DNA from: an uncultured Giesbergeria sp.
Lineage (GTDB): Bacteria; Pseudomonadota; Gammaproteobacteria; Burkholderiales; Burkholderiaceae_C
Assembly (NCBI GenBank): GCA_947624595.1
Contig: CANQLC010000015.1
Location: 4,005-68,004 of the forward strand
DNA: 64,000 nucleotides
Reading direction: 5' to 3'
Shown: piece by piece, positions 9,485 through 45,209 of the stretch
Layout of the letters: every line of letters starts with the position of its first letter
Position numbering within the stretch: the stretch's first letter is position 1
Program-made: the position numbers and the translations under genes
The notes under the pieces: generated by a model
The model's database searches: none
Told to the model about the DNA's origin: nothing
The model's input: only the letters and a program-made list of their open reading frames with translations

Positions 9485-11302
9485 TTAGAAGCTTTCCCAG
9501 TCGTCCATGCTGTTATCGGCTTTGGCGACAGTTGCGCTGGCGCTGCCGGAGGGCAGTGCTGTGTGGGAGTGTGAAGTTTTAGGGGCTTTGGGCACCTTGA
9601 GTGCGGACGATGTGTTGTGGGTGCCAGAGCGGGTGGGCGCTGCCAAGCCGACAGTTGCACTGTGCTGTACTGGAGCAGCTTTGGCGTTGGGTGAGTGGGT
9701 TGGCGCGTGGGTTGTGCTGCGTTGCATACGGGGGGTGGCGCTGTAGTTTTTCCCTAGTTTGAACATGGCCACGGTTTGCACCAAGTCTTGTGCTTGGGTG
9801 CTGAGGCTGGCGGCAGCGGCAGCCATTTCTTCGACCAGGGCGGCGTTTTGCTGTGTAGTTTGGTCCATTTGTGTCACTGCTTCGCCCACTTGGGAGACTC
9901 CCGCGCTTTGCTCAGAGCTGGCCGCACTGATCTCGCCCATGATGTCGGTGACGCGGCGGATACTGTTGACCACCTCGCTCATTGTCACGCCGGCTTGGCC
10001 GACCAAGCTGGTGCCTTGCTCGACGCGGGTCACGCTGTCGGTGATCAACTCTTTGATCTCTTTGGCTGCATTGGCCGAGCGGCCAGCCAAGCTGCGCACT
10101 TCAGACGCTACCACTGCAAAGCCACGGCCTTGCTCGCCAGCGCGGGCGGCTTCGACGGCGGCGTTGAGTGCCAAGATGTTAGTTTGGAAGGCAATCGAGT
10201 CGATCACGCCAATGATGTCGGCAATTTTTTTGCTCGAATCGTTGATGCCCTTCATGGTGTCCACCACTTGAGCCACGACGTTGCCGCCCTGAATCGCCAC
10301 AGTGCTGGCGCTTTGGGCCAGTTGGTTGGCTTGGCGGGCATTGTCGGCGTTTTGCTTGACGGTGGAACTCAGTTGCTCCATCGACGCTGCAGTTTGCTGC
10401 AGCGCGCTGGCTTGCTCTTCGGTGCGACCCGACAGGTCTTGGTTGCCTTCTGAAATTTGCGTACTGGCCGAGGCCACGGCTTCTGAGCCTTCGCGCACAT
10501 GGGCGACTACTTTGGCCAAACCGTCGCGCATGGTTTTGATTTCGGCCAGCAAGCTGGTGCTGTCGCCGGGCTGGGTTTGGACTTCAACCGCCAAATTGCC
10601 GCTGGCAATTTCGTGTACCACGCTGGCGGTGTAGTCAGGCTCGCCGCCGAGTTGGCGGGTGATCGAGCGCGTCAGCACCCAAGCGATGAGTGCGCCCATC
10701 AACGCAGCCACGCCGGCAATGATTAAAAGCAGTTGGCCCGTGAACGCCGTGGTGTTTTGCACAGTTTGCGCCGACTGGTTCATCACTTTTTCTTGGTGCG
10801 CAATGAGGTTGTCCAAAGCTTGTAAATAGCCCTGCAGAAAAGGGCGGCTTTTGCGTAGCAACTCTGGACTGACCGGCTCGCCATTAACAGCCATAGCTGC
10901 AGCCATGATCTCGTCAATATTGGCGTTGTAGGGGCCGCGAACTTGGGTGAGTTTTTCCATTAGCGCACGGCCTTCAGCACTTTGAACGCTGGCGGTCAGT
11001 GCTTGCATCAGCGGACTGGTTTTTCTGCGAATTTCTTCAATACTTTGTTTCTCCGCCTGCATTTGCTGCGGATCGCTGGACGTAGCGATGTTGTTCACCG
11101 CGTTTGCCACCTCATTGAGGTTGTCTTTAATGCGGTTGAGTTGGCCCACTTTGACCACGCGGTCATTAACCAAAAGGCGCATTTCCTTCTCAATAGAGTT
11201 CAGCTCGATGCGGCCCAAAAGGGCTACCACCAATCCGGCCAATATCACCAGTGCAAAGCCCAGACCCAGGCGAACGCCCACTCGCATATTAGAAAATGAC
11301 AT
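9485..11302 (-). CDS. Methyl-accepting chemotaxis protein (4HB sensor, C-terminal pentapeptide DWESF)
   Basis: Two TM, signalling domain [34 protein letters not shown]. Confidence 0.95.
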
Positions 11303-19072: not shown

Positions 19073-20362
19073 TCAGGCTTGATCGAGGTGATCCGCCCAC
19101 GCCAACGCTTCCATGTGCGCCATGTTGACTTGGCGGCTGCTCAGGTTCAGGGCATCGACGTGGTGGGCAAACAGCGTGTCGTCGCCGCTCTCGCAGGCCT
19201 TGGTCAGCGCCAAGAAGGGGGCAAATACGCCTCGGTTGTGTAAGAGCGCGTCCAGCACCGGCTCGGGCAGGGCGAGCGAGTCCAGCGCCTCTTCCATCGG
19301 AATGCCCAGCATGGTGTCGAGCATGGAGAACACGCCGACGACAAAGGCGTTATCGCATTCCTCGGGCCGCAGCAGCTCGGCGGCCAGCAGCTCCATCAAG
19401 CGCCCGCGCACCACGGCCATGGTGCCAATGGCCGGCGCAGCGTTGTCCGCGCGTGAGGTGGTCAGCAGCAAAGCGGCCCAGCGAAACAGCTTTTTGAAAC
19501 CCAAAATCATCACCGCGTGGCGAAACGAGGTAATCTCGCACGACAGGCCAAAGCCCGAGGAGTTGATAAAGCGCAGCAGGTTGAACGACAGCGTTGGGTC
19601 TTTTTTCAGCAGCGCTTCGATTTCTGTGGTCTCGGCTTGGTTGCGCACCAAGTTGATGAGCTGAATGATGGTGGCGTGCGAGGGGCGCAGCGTTTGTGTC
19701 TTGACCAGCGCTGGCTGGGAGAACCAGTAGCCCTGAAACAGCTTGACCTCTAACTGAGCCATCAGCGCGTGTTGCTCGGGGGTTTCGACTTTTTCGGCAA
19801 CGATTTGGGCGCGGGTGTAAGTGCGGGCAAATTTGACCAAGTCTTTGGCCTGTTCGGGCGCAAAGGCCGTCATGTCCAGCTTGATAAACGCCGTCAGTGC
19901 TAGCCAAGGGGCATAAATGGGGCGCAGTGCCTCTTGGTTCAGTGCAATGCGAAAGCCGCGCTTGTTCAGTGCCAACAGCGGTTGTAAGTGGTATTCGATG
20001 TCGTCGGCGCTGGGATCGGGGTCGTCCAATGCGGGTACTTCCAGCACCACTTTGTCGGGGTGTACCAGCTCTAGGTGGCCGCCGCGCAAGCTGTCGCGGG
20101 TGCAGTTGATGAACACCAGCTTTTTGCTGCCTACTGCCTTAACGCCCGCCGATGACAGCGCATTGAACAGCAGCGCTGCATCGGTGGTGGCCGTGTGCTC
20201 TTTGGCGGTGGTGGAGCGGTCAAACAGCTCGTAACCAAATACCGCCCGGTTAGCATCGACGATGGCTTGGCGGGCAATCACGGCCACGTTGCTGGCTTTG
20301 AAGGCTTCGGCAGAAGCGGTGGTGGGGGCGTTGGGGGCGGGATGGGCAGTGGTGTGGGGCAT
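19073..20362 (-). CDS. EAL + HDOD domain protein (degenerate EAL)
   Basis: ARQAIV..GYELFDRS, FINC, AEKVET, FQGYWF; HDOD FNLLRFINS. Confidence 0.85.
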   Translation of the reverse strand: MPHTTAHPAPNAPTTASAEAFKASNVAVIARQAIVDANRAVFGYELFDRSTTAKEHTATTDAALLFNALSSAGVKAVGSKKLVFINCTRDSLRGGHLELVHPDKVVLEVPALDDPDPSADDIEYHLQPLLALNKRGFRIALNQEALRPIYAPWLALTAFIKLDMTAFAPEQAKDLVKFARTYTRAQIVAEKVETPEQHALMAQLEVKLFQGYWFSQPALVKTQTLRPSHATIIQLINLVRNQAETTEIEALLKKDPTLSFNLLRFINSSGFGLSCEITSFRHAVMILGFKKLFRWAALLLTTSRADNAAPAIGTMAVVRGRLMELLAAELLRPEECDNAFVVGVFSMLDTMLGIPMEEALDSLALPEPVLDALLHNRGVFAPFLALTKACESGDDTLFAHHVDALNLSSRQVNMAHMEALAWADHLDQA

Positions 20363-20409
20363 GAGAGGAAAATAAGGTGGATTTTAAATTTTAGAAGGTG
20401 TAGAGCAGT

Positions 20410-21678
20410 TCAATCTGCGATGTGATCGGCCCAGACCAGTGCCTGTAAATGGGCACCGTTGATTTGCGCGCTGCTCAGCTGCAAGACGTTGGCGGCGCGG
20501 TCAAAGGCGGCGTCGTCGCTGGATTCGCAGGCCTGCGCTAAGTTCAGTAAATTGCCCAGCTTGCCAGTGCCGTGCAGCAGCGCCTCTTCTACTTCTGCTG
20601 GGACGCGCAGCAAGTTCAGCGCCTCCTCCATTGGCATGCCCAGCATCACGTCGAGCAGCGAAAAAATGCCGGCGACAAACGCTTGGTCGGCCTCGTCTTG
20701 CGCCATGCCGCTCTCGGCGGCTAACAGCTCCATCAGTCGACCGCGCACCACGGCGGTTTGGCCGACCGATGAGGGCATGCCGCTGTGGCGTGAGGTAGTC
20801 AGCAGCAGGGCGGCCCAGCGGAACAGCTTTTTCAGTCCTAGCAGCATCACGGCTTGGCGAAACGAGGTGATCTCGCGCGCCATGCCAAAGCCCGACGAGT
20901 TGATCAACCTCATCAGGTTAAAGGCCAAGCCGGCGTCCTTTTTTAGCAGCGCTTCGATTTCGTCGGTGCTGGCCTGTGCGCGCACCAAGCTGATCAGACC
21001 CAAGATACTGGTTTGGGCTGGCGTGACCAGCTTGGTATGTACCAAGGCGGGTCGGGCAAACCAGTAGCCTTGAAACAGCTGCACGCCTTGGCTGGAGACC
21101 ATGTCGTATTGCTGCGCGGTTTCGACTTTCTCGGCAATCAAGTCGGCCTTGGAGTAGCGGTTGGCGTATTTGATTAATACCGCCAACTGGTCCGGTGCCA
21201 GCACCGACAAGTCCAGCTTGATGTAGTCGGCCAGCGCCAGCCACGGCGCGTAGGCTGACTGCAGCACCGTGTGGTTAAACGCCAAGTGAAAGCCGCGCTG
21301 GCGCAGGCTGGCCAAAATCGGCAGGCGGGTGGTGACTTCCTCGGTCGCGTTGTGCCCTAGTGGGGGAATCTCCAGCACCACTTTGTCTGGCTCGACCAAT
21401 TCAAGGTGGCCGCCGGCCAAGCTTTCATGCGTGCAGTTGACGAAGATGAGTTTTTTGCCGACTAGCTCGTCGCTGCCAGCGTGTGATAGGGCGGTGAACA
21501 CCAGCGCCACATCGGTTGCCGCCGTATGCGCGGGACCCGAGCGCGAGCGGTTAAATAGCTCGTAGCCAATCACCATGTGCTGGGCGTTGACGATGGCTTG
21601 GCGGGCAATCAAGGTGGCCGAAGAGGGCTGCGCCTGAGGTGGGACAGGAACTTGGGTGGGGGTGCTGGACATGTTCAA
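20410..21678 (-). CDS. EAL + HDOD domain protein, tandem paralog
   Basis: ARQAIV..GYELFNRS, AEKVET, FQGYWF, FNLMRLINS; colinear with 19073-20362. Confidence 0.85.
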   Translation of the reverse strand: MNMSSTPTQVPVPPQAQPSSATLIARQAIVNAQHMVIGYELFNRSRSGPAHTAATDVALVFTALSHAGSDELVGKKLIFVNCTHESLAGGHLELVEPDKVVLEIPPLGHNATEEVTTRLPILASLRQRGFHLAFNHTVLQSAYAPWLALADYIKLDLSVLAPDQLAVLIKYANRYSKADLIAEKVETAQQYDMVSSQGVQLFQGYWFARPALVHTKLVTPAQTSILGLISLVRAQASTDEIEALLKKDAGLAFNLMRLINSSGFGMAREITSFRQAVMLLGLKKLFRWAALLLTTSRHSGMPSSVGQTAVVRGRLMELLAAESGMAQDEADQAFVAGIFSLLDVMLGMPMEEALNLLRVPAEVEEALLHGTGKLGNLLNLAQACESSDDAAFDRAANVLQLSSAQINGAHLQALVWADHIAD

Positions 21679-38224: not shown

Positions 38225-40246
38225 ATGGCTGTAAAACCCACCTCTGTGACCCCTTCTCCCTCCGCTTCCTCCACTGCAACCCTGCCCGAATATTCCGAAA
38301 GCTCCATCCGCGTGCTCAAGGGCTTGGAGCCGGTCAAGCAGCGCCCGGGGATGTACACCCGCACCGACAACCCGCTGCACATCATCCAAGAAGTGCTGGA
38401 CAACGCCGCCGACGAAGCCCTCGCTGGCCACGGCAAAAAAATCAAAGTCACGCTGCACCAAGATGGCTCGGTCAGCATTGACGACGATGGCCGGGGCATT
38501 CCGTTTGGCCTGCACCCGGAGGAAAACGCCCCGGTGATTGAGCTGGTATTCACCCAGCTGCACGCTGGCGGCAAGTTTGACAAAGGCAAGGGCGGCGCTT
38601 ACAGCTTCTCTGGCGGTCTGCACGGCGTGGGCGTCTCCGTCACCAACGCGCTGTCGCAGCGCATGGAAGTGGCCAGCCACCGCGAAGGCCAAGTGGCAAC
38701 GCTGGTGTTCTCCGGCGGCGACGTCATCGAGCCGCTGGCTTTGCGCCCGCAAGCCACGGGCGAGCGCCGCCAAGGCACCAGCGTGCGTGCGTGGCCCGAT
38801 GCCAAATATTTTGAATCCAGCCAACTGCCGATGCCGGCGCTGATTCACCTGCTGCGCAGCAAAGCGGTGCTGATGCCCGGCGTCTCGGTGACGCTGGTCA
38901 ACGAGCAAAACGGTGACAAGCGCGACACGCAAACGTGGCAATACAAAGGCGGCCTGCGCGACTATTTGCAGCAAACGCTGTCGGCCGACCCGGTGATTCC
39001 GCTGTTTGAAGGCAGCGGCTTTGCCAGCGCTGCCGACGAAAACTTTGCCGAAGGCGAGGGCGCCGCGTGGTGCGTCGCCTTCACCGAAGACGGTGGCGTG
39101 GTGCGCGAGAGTTACGTCAACCTGATTCCGACCAGCGCCGGCGGCACTCATGAGAGCGGCCTGCGCGATGGCCTGTTCCAAGCCGTCAAAGGCTTTATTG
39201 AGCTGCACAGCCTGCTGCCCAAAGGCGTGAAGCTGATGCCGGAAGACGTGTTCGCCCGCGCCAGCTACGTGCTCTCGACCAAAGTGCTGGATCCGCAATT
39301 CCAAGGCCAAATCAAAGAGCGGCTGAACTCGCGCGATGCAGTGCGGCTGGTCAGTAGCTTTGTGCGCCCGGCGCTGGAACTGTGGCTGAACCAGCACGTT
39401 GAATACGGCAAAAAGCTGGCCGAGCTGGCGATCAAAGCCGCGCAGACGCGCCAAAAAGCCAGCCAAAAAGTCGAAAAGCGCAAAGGCTCGGGCGTGGCCG
39501 TGCTGCCCGGCAAGCTGACCGATTGCGAAAGCCGCGACACGGCCTACAACGAAGTGTTTCTGGTCGAGGGCGATAGCGCCGGTGGCAGCGCCAAAATGGG
39601 CCGCGACAAAGAAACCCAAGCCGTGCTGCCGCTGCGTGGCAAGGTGCTGAACACGTGGGAAGTCGAGCGCGACCGGCTGTTTGCCAACAACGAAATCCAC
39701 GACATTTCTGTCGCCATCGGTGTCGATCCGCACGGCCCGAACGACACGCCGGATTTGTCCGGCCTGCGCTACGGCAAGATTTGTATCCTGAGCGACGCGG
39801 ACGTCGATGGCTCGCACATCCAAGTGCTGCTGCTGACCTTGTTCTTCCGCCACTTTCCCAAGCTGATTGACGCCGGCCACATCTACGTTGCGCGCCCGCC
39901 GCTGTTTCGCGTCGATGTGCCAGCGCGCGGCAAAAAACCGGCCGCCAAGGTGTATGCGCTGGACGAGGGCGAGCTGACCGCCATCCTCGACAAAGCCGAA
40001 AAAGACGGCGTGGCGCGCGACAAATGCAGCATCAGCCGCTTCAAAGGCTTGGGCGAGATGAACGCCGAGCAGCTGTGGGAAACCACCCTCAACCCCGACA
40101 CGCGCCGCCTGCTGCCGGTGCAACTGGGCGGCATGGACTTTGGCGCGACCGAAGCTTTGATCACCAAGCTGATGGGCAAAGGCGAAGCCGCCGCCCGCCG
40201 CGAGCTGATGGAGCTGCACGGCAACAGCGTAGAGCTGGATATTTGA
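38225..40246 (+). CDS. parE: DNA topoisomerase IV subunit B
   Basis: QEVLDNAADE, DDGRGIP, GGLHGVGVSVTNALS, VEGDSAGG, RFKGLGEM. Confidence 0.96.
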   Translation: MAVKPTSVTPSPSASSTATLPEYSESSIRVLKGLEPVKQRPGMYTRTDNPLHIIQEVLDNAADEALAGHGKKIKVTLHQDGSVSIDDDGRGIPFGLHPEENAPVIELVFTQLHAGGKFDKGKGGAYSFSGGLHGVGVSVTNALSQRMEVASHREGQVATLVFSGGDVIEPLALRPQATGERRQGTSVRAWPDAKYFESSQLPMPALIHLLRSKAVLMPGVSVTLVNEQNGDKRDTQTWQYKGGLRDYLQQTLSADPVIPLFEGSGFASAADENFAEGEGAAWCVAFTEDGGVVRESYVNLIPTSAGGTHESGLRDGLFQAVKGFIELHSLLPKGVKLMPEDVFARASYVLSTKVLDPQFQGQIKERLNSRDAVRLVSSFVRPALELWLNQHVEYGKKLAELAIKAAQTRQKASQKVEKRKGSGVAVLPGKLTDCESRDTAYNEVFLVEGDSAGGSAKMGRDKETQAVLPLRGKVLNTWEVERDRLFANNEIHDISVAIGVDPHGPNDTPDLSGLRYGKICILSDADVDGSHIQVLLLTLFFRHFPKLIDAGHIYVARPPLFRVDVPARGKKPAAKVYALDEGELTAILDKAEKDGVARDKCSISRFKGLGEMNAEQLWETTLNPDTRRLLPVQLGGMDFGATEALITKLMGKGEAAARRELMELHGNSVELDI

Positions 40247-40256
40247 GTTAAATATC

Positions 40257-40315
40257 AGTGTTTTAGGCCTCTAGCCCAATAGATACGTGCGCTAGCAGCT
40301 CTCATTTTTGAATAA
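40257..40315 (+). repeat. REP-like copy, left flank of TA module
   Basis: ttttaggcctctagcccaatagatacgtgcgctagcAGCTCTCATTTTTGAAT. Confidence 0.85.
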
Positions 40316-40339
40316 ACACTTGCCGCCAGCCAATAAAAA

Positions 40340-40356
40340 ATCCCCTTTAAGGGGAT
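40340..40356. promoter_or_regulatory. Palindromic operator overlapping mqsR -10 box
   Basis: ATCCCCTT-T-AAGGGGAT perfect 8-bp arms; GATAAT at 40354-40359, 7 nt before ATG. Confidence 0.65.
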
Positions 40357-40366
40357 AATTGACCTT

Positions 40367-40666
40367 ATGGAAAAGCATTCGCCCCACTATACGCTGGCCG
40401 AAATTCAGGCCCAGATGACATCGGTGCTGGACATGAATCTGACCTTTTCCGCCCGAAGTGGCATTCGGCTGGTGGGCATGGCGCAAGCCGATGCTTTGGC
40501 TGTGGTGCAGTGTCTGGGTCGCAAGGACTTTTACAAAAGCATGACCACCCACGGCGATCACCGGGTCTGGCAAGACGTCTATCACGGGCAGTGGGGCGAT
40601 ATTGCGCTCTACATCAAGTTCCAGCAGGCGGGTGAGTATTTTGTGGTCTCGTTTAAGGAGTTGTGA
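40367..40666 (+). CDS. mqsR: MqsR-family mRNA interferase toxin
   Basis: MEKxxPH start, DFYKSMTT, WQDVY, LYIK, VSFKE as in E. coli MqsR. Confidence 0.9.
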   Translation: MEKHSPHYTLAEIQAQMTSVLDMNLTFSARSGIRLVGMAQADALAVVQCLGRKDFYKSMTTHGDHRVWQDVYHGQWGDIALYIKFQQAGEYFVVSFKEL

Positions 40667-40667
40667 G

Positions 40668-41072
40668 ATGGCAAGCAAATGGCATGGAAACGCCTGCCCC
40701 CTGTGCGGGGCCGGGGTGTTGCACGACGGCGTCAAAACCGTGACTCAGCCGTACAAAGGGCACGTGTATAGCACTGAAACCCACGGGGCGTTTTGCGACC
40801 ACTGCGCCGATGGCATTGCCCAGTTTGACGCAACCGAAGAAGCGGCTTGGCTGGCTTTTCGTGACCGTATGGATGCGCTGGAGGCCGCCGAATTGGCGCG
40901 GATTCGCAAAAAATTAAAGCTCACCCAATTGGAGGCAGCGCAACTGACGGGAGGCGGAAAAAACGCTTTTTCACGCTACGAACGTGGTCAAGCCAAGCCG
41001 TTGGCGGCGGTGGTGAATTTGTTTCGTTTGCTAGACCAGTACCCCGAATTGTTGGGTGAGTTGAGAACCTAA
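40668..41072 (+). CDS. mqsA: MqsA-family antitoxin (Zn finger + Xre HTH)
   Basis: CPLC...CDHC; RKKLKLTQLEAAQLTGGGKNAFSRYERG. Confidence 0.9.
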   Translation: MASKWHGNACPLCGAGVLHDGVKTVTQPYKGHVYSTETHGAFCDHCADGIAQFDATEEAAWLAFRDRMDALEAAELARIRKKLKLTQLEAAQLTGGGKNAFSRYERGQAKPLAAVVNLFRLLDQYPELLGELRT

Positions 41073-41080
41073 ATAATAGA

Positions 41081-41137
41081 TAAAAACAGCCTCCAGCCCT
41101 TATATAGCAAGCGCTGTTAGCTCTCATTTTTGAATTA
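41081..41137 (+). repeat. REP-like copy, right flank of TA module
   Basis: aaaaacagcctccagcccttatatagcaagcgctgttAGCTCTCATTTTTGAAT. Confidence 0.8.
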
Positions 41138-41151
41138 AATTTATTGTCCAG

Positions 41152-43545
41152 ATGACCGACGACCTTTTGACTTCTTTGGCCGACGCGCCTGCGCCCGATG
41201 AGGGCACCCACAACGCTGCCGACGCTGCCGCCGCCCCCGACAACGACTGCCTTGGCGGTTACGCCCAGCGCGCTTACCTTGAATACGCGCTGAGCGTCGT
41301 CAAAGGCCGCGCGTTGCCCGATGTCTGCGACGGCATGAAGCCGGTGCAGCGGCGCATTTTGTACGCGATGGAGCGCATGGGCTTGGGCTACTCCGGCCCG
41401 AACGGCAACACCGCGCCGCGTCCGGTCAAAAGCGCCCGCGTGGTCGGCGATGTGCTGGGACGCTTTCACCCGCACGGCGACCAGTCGGCCTACGACGCGC
41501 TGGTGAGGATGGCGCAGGACTTTTCGCAGCGCTACCCGTTGATCGACGGCCAAGGCAATTTTGGTTCGCGCGATGGCGACGGCGCGGCGGCGATGCGCTA
41601 CACCGAGGCGCGTTTGGCCAAAATCACCCGGCTGCTGGTGGAGGAAATTGACGAGGGCACGGTCGATTTCATCCCCAACTACGACGGCTCGACTGTGGAG
41701 CCGCGCCAGTTGCCGGCGCGCTTGCCGTTTGCGCTGCTCAACGGTGCCAGCGGCATTGCCGTCGGCTTGGCGACCGAAATCCCCAGCCACAACCTGCGCG
41801 AAGTGGCCGACGCTTGCGTCGCGCTCATCAAAAACCCGCAACTGCCCGAGGCCGATTTGCTGGCGCTGCTGCCCGGCCCGGACTACCCCGGCGGCGGCCA
41901 AATCATCAGCGCCGCCAGCGACATTGCCGATGCCTACCGCAGCGGGCGCGGCAGCCTGAAGGTGCGCGCGCGCTGGAAAATTGAAGAGCTGGCGCGCGGC
42001 CAGTGGCAGTTGGTCGTCACCGAGTTGCCGCCCGGCGTCAGCACGCAAAAGGTGCTAGAAGAAATCGAAGAGCTGACCAACCCGAAAATTAAAACTGGCA
42101 AAAAAGCGCTGAGCCAAGACCAAGTGCAGCTCAAAGCCAGCGTGCTGGCGGTGCTGGACGGTGTGCGCGATGAATCCAGCAAAGACGCCGCCGTGCGCTT
42201 GGTGTGCGAACCCAAAACCGGCAAAACGCCCCAGCAAGAGCTGATTACGGCGCTGTTGGCGCACACCAGTTTGGAGACGTCGTCCTCCATCAACCTGACG
42301 ATGATTGGCATTGACGGCAAGCCGGTGCAAAAGTCGCTGCGCCAGATGCTGGTGGAGTGGCTGGCGTTTAGGCACATCACCATCACGCGCCGCTCTGAGC
42401 ACCGCTTGCACAAGGTGAGCGAGCGCATCCACATTTTGGAAGGGCGGCAAATGGTGCTGCTCAACATCGACGAGGTGATTGCCATCATCCGCAATGCCGA
42501 GGAGCCCAAAGCCGATCTGATAGAGCGCTTTGCCCTGAGCGAGCGCCAAGCCGACGATATTTTAGAAATTCGCCTGCGCCAGTTGGCGCGCTTAGAGGCC
42601 ATCAAGATTGAGCAAGAGTTGCAAACGCTGCGCGACAGCCAAGGCAAGCTGCAAGATATTTTGGCCAACCCAGCGGTGCTGCGCCGCTTGATGGTCAAAG
42701 AGATTGAGCAAGACGCCAAGCAGTTTGCCGACGCCCGGCGCACGCTGATTCAGGCCGAGAAAAAAGCCGTGGTCGAGGTCAAAGTGGTCGATGAGCCGGT
42801 GACGGTGGTGGTGTCGGACAAAGGCTGGGTGCGCGCGCGCAGCGGCCACGGGCACGAGGCGGGCAGCTTTGCCTTTAAAGCCGGCGACGCGCTGTACGGC
42901 ACCTTTGAGTGCCGCACGGTCGATACCTTTGTGGTGTTTGGCAGCAATGGCCGGGTGTATTCGGTGCCGGTGGCGCAGTTGCCCAACGCCCGCGGCGACG
43001 GCCAGCCAGTGACGACGCTGATTGAGCTGGAAGCCGGTACGCACATCGCCCACTACTTTGCCGGCCCGGCGGCGGCCATGCTGCTGCTGGCCAGCAGCGG
43101 CGGTTATGGCTTTTTGGCCAGCGTTGAGGGCATGGTCTCGCGCAACAAAAGCGGCAAAGCCTTCATCAGCTTGGCCGAGGGCGAGGCGGTGTGCGTGCCC
43201 TCGCACGCCGCCCACAGCAGTGGCAGTGCGGCGTTGTTGGACGCCACACACGTGGCGTGCGTGTCAGTCGGCGGGCGCATTTTGACGTTTGCCATCAGCG
43301 ATTTGAAGCGCATGGACAAGGGCGGGCGCGGGCTGATGCTGATTGATTTGGAAGACAACGACCAGCTGGCCGGTGCGGCGGCGTACACGCGCAGCATCCG
43401 CATCGACGGTATCGGGCGCGGTGGCAAGGCGCGCCAAGAGACGCTGGATATTCGCTCGCTCAATAACGCCGCCGCACCGCGCGGGCGCAAAGGCAAGGCA
43501 GTGAATGTGACCTTTAAACCAGCGCTGGTGACGCGCGTGGAGTGA
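41152..43545 (+). CDS. parC: DNA topoisomerase IV subunit A
   Basis: [34 protein letters not shown]; beta-pinwheel C-terminus. Confidence 0.96.
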
Positions 43546-43673: not shown

Positions 43674-45209
43674 ATGCAGCAGCTTCGCATTGCGCACAAA
43701 TTGTGGTTGTCTGTGCTCGCCATCGTGGCGTTGTTGGTGGCGGCGATTGGTTTTGCCGGTTATCGCACTGCCAAGCTCGAGAGCGAGAGCGATGCGGCCA
43801 GTGTTGCCTTGGCCACCCGCGTGGCCTTGGCGCTGCGCTGGACGGGTTTGACCGAGACCAACGCCGCCCGCACCCAAGCCGTCATTGTCAGCAGCGACCC
43901 CGAGGTCGAGCGGGTGTTCAAGGATGCGATGGCCGCCACCACCGCCAGCATTGGCGAGGTGCAAAAGCGCATCGAAGCGATGGATTTGCCCCAGACCGAC
44001 CGGGCGCAAATGGCCCAAATTGCCGAGGCGCGCAAAACAATGGCAGCGGCCCGCGCCAAGGCGCGCCAGCTCAAGGCTGCTGGGCAGTTGGACGAAGCGG
44101 TGGCGTTTATCAACGGCACTTACAACCCGGCCTCGGACGCCTATCTACAAACCCTGCGCGACTTTGTACAAATGCAGCAGCAGGCCGCGAGCCAACAAGA
44201 AACCATCACCGCCAACGCGCGCATGGCGACGGTGCAAATGGTGGCTGCAGCACTGGGTGCAGTGTTGCTGGCGCTGGTGGTCGGCGCTGCGGCCTTGATC
44301 CGCAGCATCCAGCAGCCGCTGGCGCAGGCCAACGCACTGGCGGCGCAGATTGCTTCGGGCGATTTGAGTGCCCACGCGCAAGTCTCGCGCGGCGATGAGT
44401 TTGGCGAGCTGCTGCGCGCGCTCTACGCCATGAGCGCCTCGCTGGGGCGCATGGTGCAGCAGGTGCGCCAAAGCACCGACAGCATTGCCACCGCCAGCAG
44501 CCAAATCGCCAGTGGCAACCACGACCTGTCGGCGCGCACCGAGCAAACCGCCAGCAACCTGCAACAAACTGCGGCGGCGATGGAAGAGTTCAGCAGCACC
44601 ATCAGCCAAAGTGCCCACAGCGCGCAGCAGGCCAGCACGCTGGCCGCCGGTGCTTCAGGCGTGGCGCGGCGCGGCGGCGAGGTGGTCGGTCAAGTGGTCA
44701 GCACGATGGAGGAGATCAACCACAGCAGCCAAAAAATTGCCGACATCATTGGCGTGATCGACTCGATTGCTTTCCAAACCAACATCTTGGCGCTCAACGC
44801 GGCGGTGGAAGCGGCGCGCGCTGGTGAGCAAGGCCGTGGCTTTGCTGTGGTGGCCAGTGAGGTGCGCAGCTTGGCTGGCCGCAGTGCGCAGGCAGCCAAA
44901 GAGATCAAAGATTTGATTACCGCCTCGGTCGAACGGGTAGGCGCTGGCCAGCGGTTGGTGCAAGACGCCGGCACCACCATGCACGACATCGTGCAATCGG
45001 TGCAGCGCGTGACCGACATGATTGGCGAAATCACCTCGGCCTCGACCGAGCAAAGCACGGGAATTGCGCAGGTCGCTCAGGCCGTGGGCAACCTCGACCA
45101 GATGACGCAGCAAAACGCCGCGCTGGTCGAAGAAAGCGCCGCCGCCGCGCAAAGCCTGCACGAGCAAGCTGACCAACTGGCGCAAGTGGTGGCGGCGTTT
45201 AAGGTTTAA
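43674..45209 (+). CDS. Methyl-accepting chemotaxis protein (4HB, HAMP, no pentapeptide)
   Basis: RBS AAGGAGG; RGDEFG HAMP; [18 protein letters not shown]. Confidence 0.95.

Follow-up and report, generated by a model that had tools for sequence, protein, structure and literature searches.

The parE–parC interval of an uncultured Comamonadaceae-type bacterium raises the question of how a toxin–antitoxin (TA) pair came to lie between two core genes, and whether the two repeat copies that now bracket it had a part in its arrival. The window, by which we mean the whole stretch of 64,000 nucleotides (nt) analysed here, belongs to a genome (G000) of 2.91 Mb in 32 contigs with 60.5% GC. In it, an mqsR–mqsA pair stands between a parE-like and a parC-like gene, and the 17-mer AGCTCTCATTTTTGAAT found on either side of the pair forms, in both places, the 3′ tail of a copy of a ~56-nt repeat family that resembles repetitive extragenic palindromic (REP) sequences, the two copies having the same orientation. 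There is good support for reading the pair as a TA islet that was acquired at a hotspot which the repeat marks and which other genomes show in an empty state. The fuller reading, in which a minimal mqsRA islet was acquired horizontally in the parE–parC hotspot spacer and was gained by recombination within the repeat tail, we hold at slightly better than even.

An mqsRA islet and the empty site of the sister species

The closest relative is the sister species G032, which is 92% identical over a 9-kb background and whose ParE-like protein shares 98.8% of its amino acids with that of the window. The G032 spacer is 65 nt long and reads parE-TGA GTGTTTTAGGCCTCTAGCCCAATGAATACGGGCGCTAGC-AGCTCTCATTTTTGAAT-AAATTACCG-ATG(parC), with one repeat copy and no cargo; empty sites with one copy were likewise found in G010 and others. 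This comparison covered 60 relatives, which were searched with the DNA of the locus and from which the intervals were excised, together with six more genomes of the genus. The initial annotation of this DNA had predicted that other genomes would show either an empty site with one repeat or other cargo, and both turned up: besides the empty site of G032, the interval holds ccdAB (CcdB is a gyrase poison), brnTA with restriction–modification (R-M) genes, or a DUF1016 gene elsewhere (Table 1). These alleles show the parE–parC spacer to be a small hotspot where members of one Comamonadaceae genus have gained and lost TA and defence genes. An SLT (lytic transglycosylase) gene present in the interval of G020, G034 and G021 was considered as a further cargo and rejected, the order parE-slt-parC being widespread in Comamonadaceae and found also in Cupriavidus (L214, L224, L266, L278 and about 20 other Burkholderiales loci). 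This gene is probably an ancestral resident of the interval, since lost by most of the genus; in the window's genome there are paralogues of it at ~35% identity but no orthologue.

The cargo in the window is compact. MqsR matches its Pfam family with 96.9 bits against a cut-off of 26.2 and aligns over its full length with E. coli MqsR (3HI2, chain B; E 1.6e-12), and MqsA matches its own family with 110.8 bits, also matches HTH_31, aligns over its full length with E. coli MqsA (3GN5; E 1.6e-25) and retains the CxxC...CxxC zinc motif. With the toxin gene first, the antitoxin gene second and a 1-nt gap between them, the two have the appearance of an intact MqsR/MqsA type II pair. They are the sole credible open reading frames (ORFs) between parE and parC, and neither the ORF list nor Pfam reveals a recombinase encoded in or next to the interval, in agreement with its earlier description as operator, toxin and antitoxin without a recombinase. 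The operator of that description corresponds to a perfect palindrome, ATCCCCTT-T-AAGGGGAT, upstream of mqsR, which we regard as a candidate MqsA operator because a related palindromic stretch occurs at the same position in the 79–80% identical cassettes L075 and L076. The pair reads in the same direction as parE and parC. On the + strand the spacers between the genes showed no terminator-like site, and no sigma-70-like promoter turned up in 40150–41250; parC is therefore probably served by read-through from parE and/or from an mqsRA promoter, and mqsRA is probably transcribed together with both neighbours.

A mosaic of two repeat copies

The 17-mer was recovered exactly where it had been annotated, on the + strand at 40297–40313 and 41119–41135. 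It has no further match in the window even with two mismatches, shuffled sequence giving an expectation of none, and no occurrence elsewhere in the 2.91-Mb, 32-contig genome. A related observation, that the GCTCT variant is carried by no other repeat copy, holds within the window; genome-wide the variant is present in 70 of 552 copies (13%) and is not rare. The initial annotation was to be given up if this variant proved common across the genome and no empty-site allele existed: the former is arguably the case at 13%, and the latter is not, given the sister species.

The two bracketing copies differ in a manner that bears on their origin. The left copy (L) and the right copy (R) are identical at 16 of 30 positions in their 5′ halves and at 17 of 17 in their tails, which puts them in different subfamilies. 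L falls in an abundant subfamily, with 34–38-nt exact matches to many copies; its lead and tail match those of the one copy in G032, and its loop differs from that copy at a few places. R differs from L in lead and loop and has the identical tail, and downstream of it comes TAAATTTATTGTCCAG-ATG, a homologue of the G032 leader with some indels. The single copy of G010 combines an L-like lead with an R-like loop. The layout in the window can thus be read as a resident 5′ half with its tail, then the cargo, then a non-resident 5′ half with its tail, and last the resident leader. Such an attL/attR-like mosaic is what would result if a resident copy and incoming DNA with mqsRA and a family copy had undergone one crossover in the tail. 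The length of the shared run is not what makes it unusual: because the core of the family is conserved, 14% of random copy pairs match exactly and in register over 17 nt or more. The unusual part is its position, since only 0.6% of random pairs have such a run in the variable tail. The longest exact match of R elsewhere in the genome is the tail of L (17 nt, with several others at 15 nt), which fits a homology-guided choice of site by a small margin.

The 17-mer occurs exactly once in each of G032, G010 and G017, always just upstream of parC; two more occurrences in the genus (G001 and G036) are at unrelated loci. In related species, then, the 17-mer is orthologous at this locus, and the insertion did not make it. 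In metagenome scans, a 32-mer spanning the R junction had no match, and the bare 17-mer had at least 120, all of them chance matches in unrelated organisms and none with parE or parC of this genus.

We propose that the starting state was a spacer with one REP-like copy whose tail, AGCTCTCATTTTTGAAT, lay just upstream of parC. A single crossover within the shared tail would then have joined this copy to incoming DNA that carried mqsRA and a family copy of its own. The gain amounts to ~0.77–0.82 kb comprising the palindromic candidate operator, mqsR and mqsA, and the insert sits immediately 3′ of the resident tail and ends in a second, diverged copy with the same tail. Judged from sequence comparison, such short-homology, Campbell-type recombination is the most likely origin of the locus, and narrowly a probable one. 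The insertion relative to the sister species, the junction at the tail and the mosaic all fit the earlier suggestion that the pair entered by recombination at the repeat, which is the best candidate mechanism.

Table 1. Features of the parE–parC locus in the window (coordinates in the window) and content of the interval in relatives
Feature	Position or genome	Strand	Evidence or remark
parE-like gene (topoisomerase IV subunit B type), left core flank	38225–40246	+	Pfam HATPase_c, DNA_gyraseB, Toprim, DNA_gyraseB_C
11-nt indel GTTAAATATCA, directly 3′ of the parE stop	40247–40257	+
Left copy (L) of the REP-like family, resident-type	40258–40313	+	nhmmer E 3.8e-17
17-mer AGCTCTCATTTTTGAAT, tail of left copy	40297–40313	+
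Left linker, 23 nt, between L tail and conserved cassette	40314–40336	+	Outside homology with mqsRA cassettes elsewhere
Perfect 8+1+8 palindrome ATCCCCTT-T-AAGGGGAT, 10 nt upstream of mqsR	40340–40356		Read in sequence, fold, stem scan; candidate MqsA operator
mqsR toxin gene, 99 amino acids	40367–40666	+	PF15723 E 9.5e-28
mqsA antitoxin gene, 134 amino acids, 1 nt after mqsR stop	40668–41072	+	PF15731 E 6.8e-32 and a helix-turn-helix (HTH) domain
Right copy (R) of the REP-like family, 5′ half from a different subfamily	41080–41135	+	nhmmer E 2.6e-14
17-mer AGCTCTCATTTTTGAAT, tail of right copy	41119–41135	+
parC leader TAAATTTATTGTCCAG	41136–41151	+	Identical in G017 contig C91; homologous with indels to G032 leader
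parC-like gene (topoisomerase IV subunit A type), right core flank	41152–43545	+	Pfam DNA_topoisoIV E 2.1e-132, DNA_gyraseA_C
Short parE–parC interval, 98–188 nt from parE stop to conserved ParC anchor	About 22 genomes		Usually one family copy right after parE stop
Extra genes within the parE–parC interval	About 10 genomes
parE and parC non-adjacent	4 genomes
CcdA and CcdB	Interval of G033 (L048)
BrnT/BrnA, N6/N4 methylase and ResIII enzyme (type III R-M-like)	Interval of G028 (L049), 6 kb
DUF1016/YhcG nuclease	Interval of G004
DNA without assignment	Intervals of G007 and G029

The repeat family across the genome

The family, with the consensus CAAATCGGCCTCTAGCCCTTTAAATACGTGCGCTAGCAGCTATCAATTTTA, was counted with a hidden Markov model (HMM) built from the copies in the window and run on the whole genome, which gave 552 copies at E<1e-3 (678 at E<=1), or ~1 per 5 kb, in both orientations. 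It is a short imperfect palindrome (CTAGC...GCTAG) of high copy number and mostly intergenic location, which is what makes it REP-like, and the CTAGC and GCTAG arms pair in 71–93% of copies. Conservation is at the level of sequence, variation across the 552 copies mostly breaking pairs instead of compensating. A structured-RNA reading was rejected on this ground and because the repeat folds no better than shuffles, and an apparent compensatory change between R and the G017 copy was not used for the same reason of mostly pair-breaking variation. A whole-window scan at gathering thresholds found no Rfam family for the repeat or the locus. The genome has no match to PF01797, the Y1/RAYT transposase family, which did match in control genomes, and mobilisation of the REPtron or IS200/IS605-like kind was dropped. 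An integron-cassette reading was rejected for this genome because the repeat has ~550 copies in both orientations.

Family copies often lie close together. Among neighbouring pairs, 190 of 521 are less than 3 kb apart, 83 of these 190 in the same orientation, and most of the other close pairs that we examined flank housekeeping-type genes (ung, thyA, sbcB and a nitronate monooxygenase gene, recognised by eye, not by Pfam); the remaining ones enclose one accessory nuclease-like gene and one low-GC island. Bracketing by family copies is thus ordinary in this genome. For same-orientation neighbours the in-register run averages 12.5 nt, and for random pairs 11.6 nt; 17 nt is reached by 18% of the former and 14% of the latter. 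Elsewhere in the genome, on contig C2 (254966–257749), a 2.8-kb island of 42% GC with three ORFs that have no obvious assignment by eye is bracketed by two family copies that are 96% identical and share a 26-nt exact run, and a longer repeated segment is present at both of its ends and once inside.

Weighing recombination at the tail against its alternatives

One allele needs to be introduced before the alternatives are compared. Contig C91 of G017 (L003, L077) carries an R-type copy next to parC with tail and leader identical to those of the window and different DNA at its left. That left side is syntenic with contig C5 of G000 (167.6–171.5 kb), and the break lies exactly at the 5′ edge of the repeat. 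The contig may be a recombinant, formed by a rearrangement at the repeat, or a mis-binned or chimeric assembly product, and we have given it little weight because it is far closer to the window's genome (~91%) than is the G017 background (80–81%) and because the G017 assembly is without parE.

Several points weigh against recombination in the tail as the origin of the islet. An identity of 17–20 nt is short for RecA-dependent recombination, and the polarity, a gain here as opposed to a loss in G032, rests on parsimony only. The distance between the 17-nt match of R to L and the next-best match of 15 nt is narrow, and R stands only slightly apart from the rest of the family, with a nearest-neighbour identity of 0.86 at the 10th percentile, so that it need not be a foreign copy. 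Conservation of the 17-mer in G032, G010 and C91 means that tail identity could reflect selection on the parC leader, and C91 suggests that an R-type copy beside parC may predate mqsRA or be independent of it. Among 41 genomes of the genus, we found no donor with mqsRA adjoining this repeat family. Nor is there a genome-wide signal, neighbouring copies being no more alike than random pairs; the hint of repeat-mediated cargo shuffling in the initial annotation finds no footing in these data.

One alternative, which we regard as possible but rather unlikely, makes the two-copy state with cargo the older one: the ancestor of this species and G032 would have had L, cargo and R, and G032 would have lost the cargo by recombination between the 17-nt tails. 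The single G032 copy has just the structure predicted for the deletion product (5′ half of L, 17-mer and an R-type leader with indels), and the R-type copy of C91 would place such a copy beside parC outside the mqsRA-bearing species. This history is less parsimonious, however, as it requires one gain and one loss in place of one gain, and a single copy is found in most of the genus, including the outgroup G010. A deletion allele was not seen among the conspecific contigs examined, nor a cargo-free tandem pair in any allele.

We are about equally doubtful that the bracket is a coincidence. On that view illegitimate recombination, or else an allelic replacement in which parE and parC served as homology arms, would have brought the pair in; the other repeat copy would be independent of it, either a new insertion or an older neighbour, and the tails would match because the 17-mer and leader are conserved as parC expression signals or through local gene conversion. 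The abundance of the family and the housekeeping genes within most of the close pairs examined make a chance bracket easy to imagine. The 17-mer has, moreover, been kept at this locus in four lineages with varying flanks, tail and leader are identical at 36 of 36 positions between R and C91 despite 88% identity over the first 200 nt of parC, and most other cargo alleles have a single copy that stays next to parC, with no second. Against coincidence stand the rarity of an identical variable tail in random pairs and the absence of the 17-mer from the rest of the genome. The mosaic of an L that looks resident and an R whose flank looks resident would also be left unexplained, and a sliding window of identity shows no discontinuity in parE or parC that would suggest a replaced segment.

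Site-specific integration, with an integrase acting in trans, the 17-mer as att core and the cassette as a non-autonomous integrative element, is very improbable: the structure is formally arm-core-cargo-arm-core, but there is no recombinase in or next to the interval and no Y1 or RAYT transposase in the genome, the "P arm" would be one of 550 copies of a chromosomal repeat, a sign of homology and not of site-specificity, and the other cargo alleles do not reuse the same core.

Recombination between repeat tails would have a wider consequence if it were general. Two alleles of the hotspot hold cargo between same-orientation copies that share a perfect 17–18-nt stretch, namely mqsRA here and the type III R-M genes of G028. 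In G028 the bracketing copies share the 18-nt TAAGCGCTAATAGCTATT, an identity that falls in the conserved core and is not significant alone. We speculate, with considerable reserve, that REP-like copies may act as portable short-homology landing pads, such that DNA bearing a gene pair and one copy could enter at any resident copy whose tail matches and could later be lost again by precise deletion; the parE–parC spacer would then be a recombinase-free site of cassette exchange. The G028 interval also contains a stray tail-like CTCTCATTTTTGAA just upstream of its second repeat copy.

Origin and present status of the cassette

The cassette has a foreign base composition, with 54% GC against 62–63% for parE and parC. 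The 41 genomes of the genus contain no close DNA relative of it, and no second copy was found in them. Outside the species the nearest MqsA proteins are 81–83% identical, and homology with the best related cassettes (79–80% at the nucleotide level) is limited to 40337–41069 of the window, that is, to the palindrome, mqsR and mqsA; the left 23-nt linker and the right linker of ~10 nt lie outside it. Contigs L075, L076 and L074 (metagenome or Logan contigs) carry the 81–83% identical MqsA relatives, and the surroundings of their mqsRA genes look like a cassette array. In L076, from an unrelated organism, the homologous pair lies between the two units, 95% identical, of a 125-nt direct repeat that belongs to a different element and contains a CCCCCTTT-GTT-AAAGGGGG hairpin. 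Upstream of the pair in L075 are a PIN-domain gene, a Y1 transposase gene and tandem GTAATAGGGGAC repeats.

Within the species the arrangement is uniform. Conspecific contigs from metagenome-assembled genomes (MAGs; ~97% nucleotide identity) were collected through MqsA (ten, and one more with the window's own MqsA) and through identical ParE (nine), and all those examined have the order parE-mqsR-mqsA-parC with the same junctions. The right 17-mer is invariant in all 11 conspecific contigs, and the left one differs by one single-nucleotide polymorphism in one MAG (L065). No empty allele, deletion allele or sign of excision was seen among the contigs examined. The pair thus appears to be fixed in the species with no evidence of current mobility, and the proposal that it is a cassette able to excise cleanly gained no support. 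At the left border lies the 11-nt indel GTTAAATATCA, which was found in the window and in one ENA contig (L073) and is missing from ten conspecific MAG contigs and from G032.

Relation to known systems

The pair resembles E. coli MqsR/MqsA (YgiU/YgiT) in its toxin-first order, the MqsR fold family, an MqsA with N-terminal zinc CxxC...CxxC motif and C-terminal HTH, and an upstream palindrome. Similarity is moderate, however, and where the E. coli mqsRA promoter has two ACCT-N-AGGT palindromes, the window has a single one, CCCCT-TTA-AGGGG. Integration hotspots between core genes are a general concept in chromosomal horizontal transfer, and the parE–parC spacer shares with them its conserved core flanks and a variable content enriched in TA and defence genes. 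It departs from the usual hotspot in being a spacer of tens of nt inside a probable operon, with islets of 0.8–6 kb and no integrase.

The closest precedent is the ccdO157 TA islet in the hypervariable folA–apaH spacer of E. coli, where about half of isolates have a REP sequence instead (Mine et al. 2009, as related by Delihas 2011, PMC3184786), and the mqsRA islet follows the same pattern. In both cases a two-gene type II TA module lies alone between two housekeeping genes, in a hypervariable spacer, without a recombinase, and alternative alleles often hold REP sequence. The islet in the window differs from ccdO157 in family (MqsRA), in site (parE–parC), in the two bracketing copies with an identical tail, and in being fixed in its species, with no decayed copy among the conspecific contigs examined. 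Insertion sequences (ISs) that target REPs are also known, among them IS1397 and IS621, the latter inserting at the 3′ side outside the palindrome (Tobes and Pareja 2006, as related in PMC3184786). The family shares with REPs and bacterial interspersed mosaic elements (BIMEs) the character of a high-copy, short imperfect-palindrome element in intergenic spacers, and the insertion at the locus lies, as for IS621, at the 3′ side outside the palindrome. Unlike a REP-targeted IS insertion, the inserted mqsRA is no IS and brings no transposase, the genome is without RAYT, and the family is conserved in its sequence and not through compensatory stem changes.

The locus is thus an example of a known pattern and no new kind of mobile element. 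Its novelty lies in the parE–parC site, in the range of cargo that different members of the genus carry there, and in the way the flanking copies form an attL/attR-like mosaic. With its filled and empty alleles, it offers a clean natural example of a minimal TA pair lodged, without a recombinase, in a probable operon of essential genes. TA islets near REPs, as in the E. coli folA–apaH spacer, have until now been only a noted correlation; if short-homology recombination at REP-like tails were shown, it would provide a simple mechanism for scattered TA islets next to REPs.

Other repeats in the window

Two further repeat structures lie elsewhere in the window. Direct repeats of 70–210 nt with ~1.33-kb spacing and 72–79% identity, at 19275–21614, point to a diverged tandem gene duplication. 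A 262-nt inverted repeat with 82% complementarity joins 10039–10300 to 44661–44922; its right arm lies within a chemoreceptor (methyl-accepting chemotaxis protein, MCP) gene downstream of parC, and the repeat may mark a second, paralogous MCP gene.

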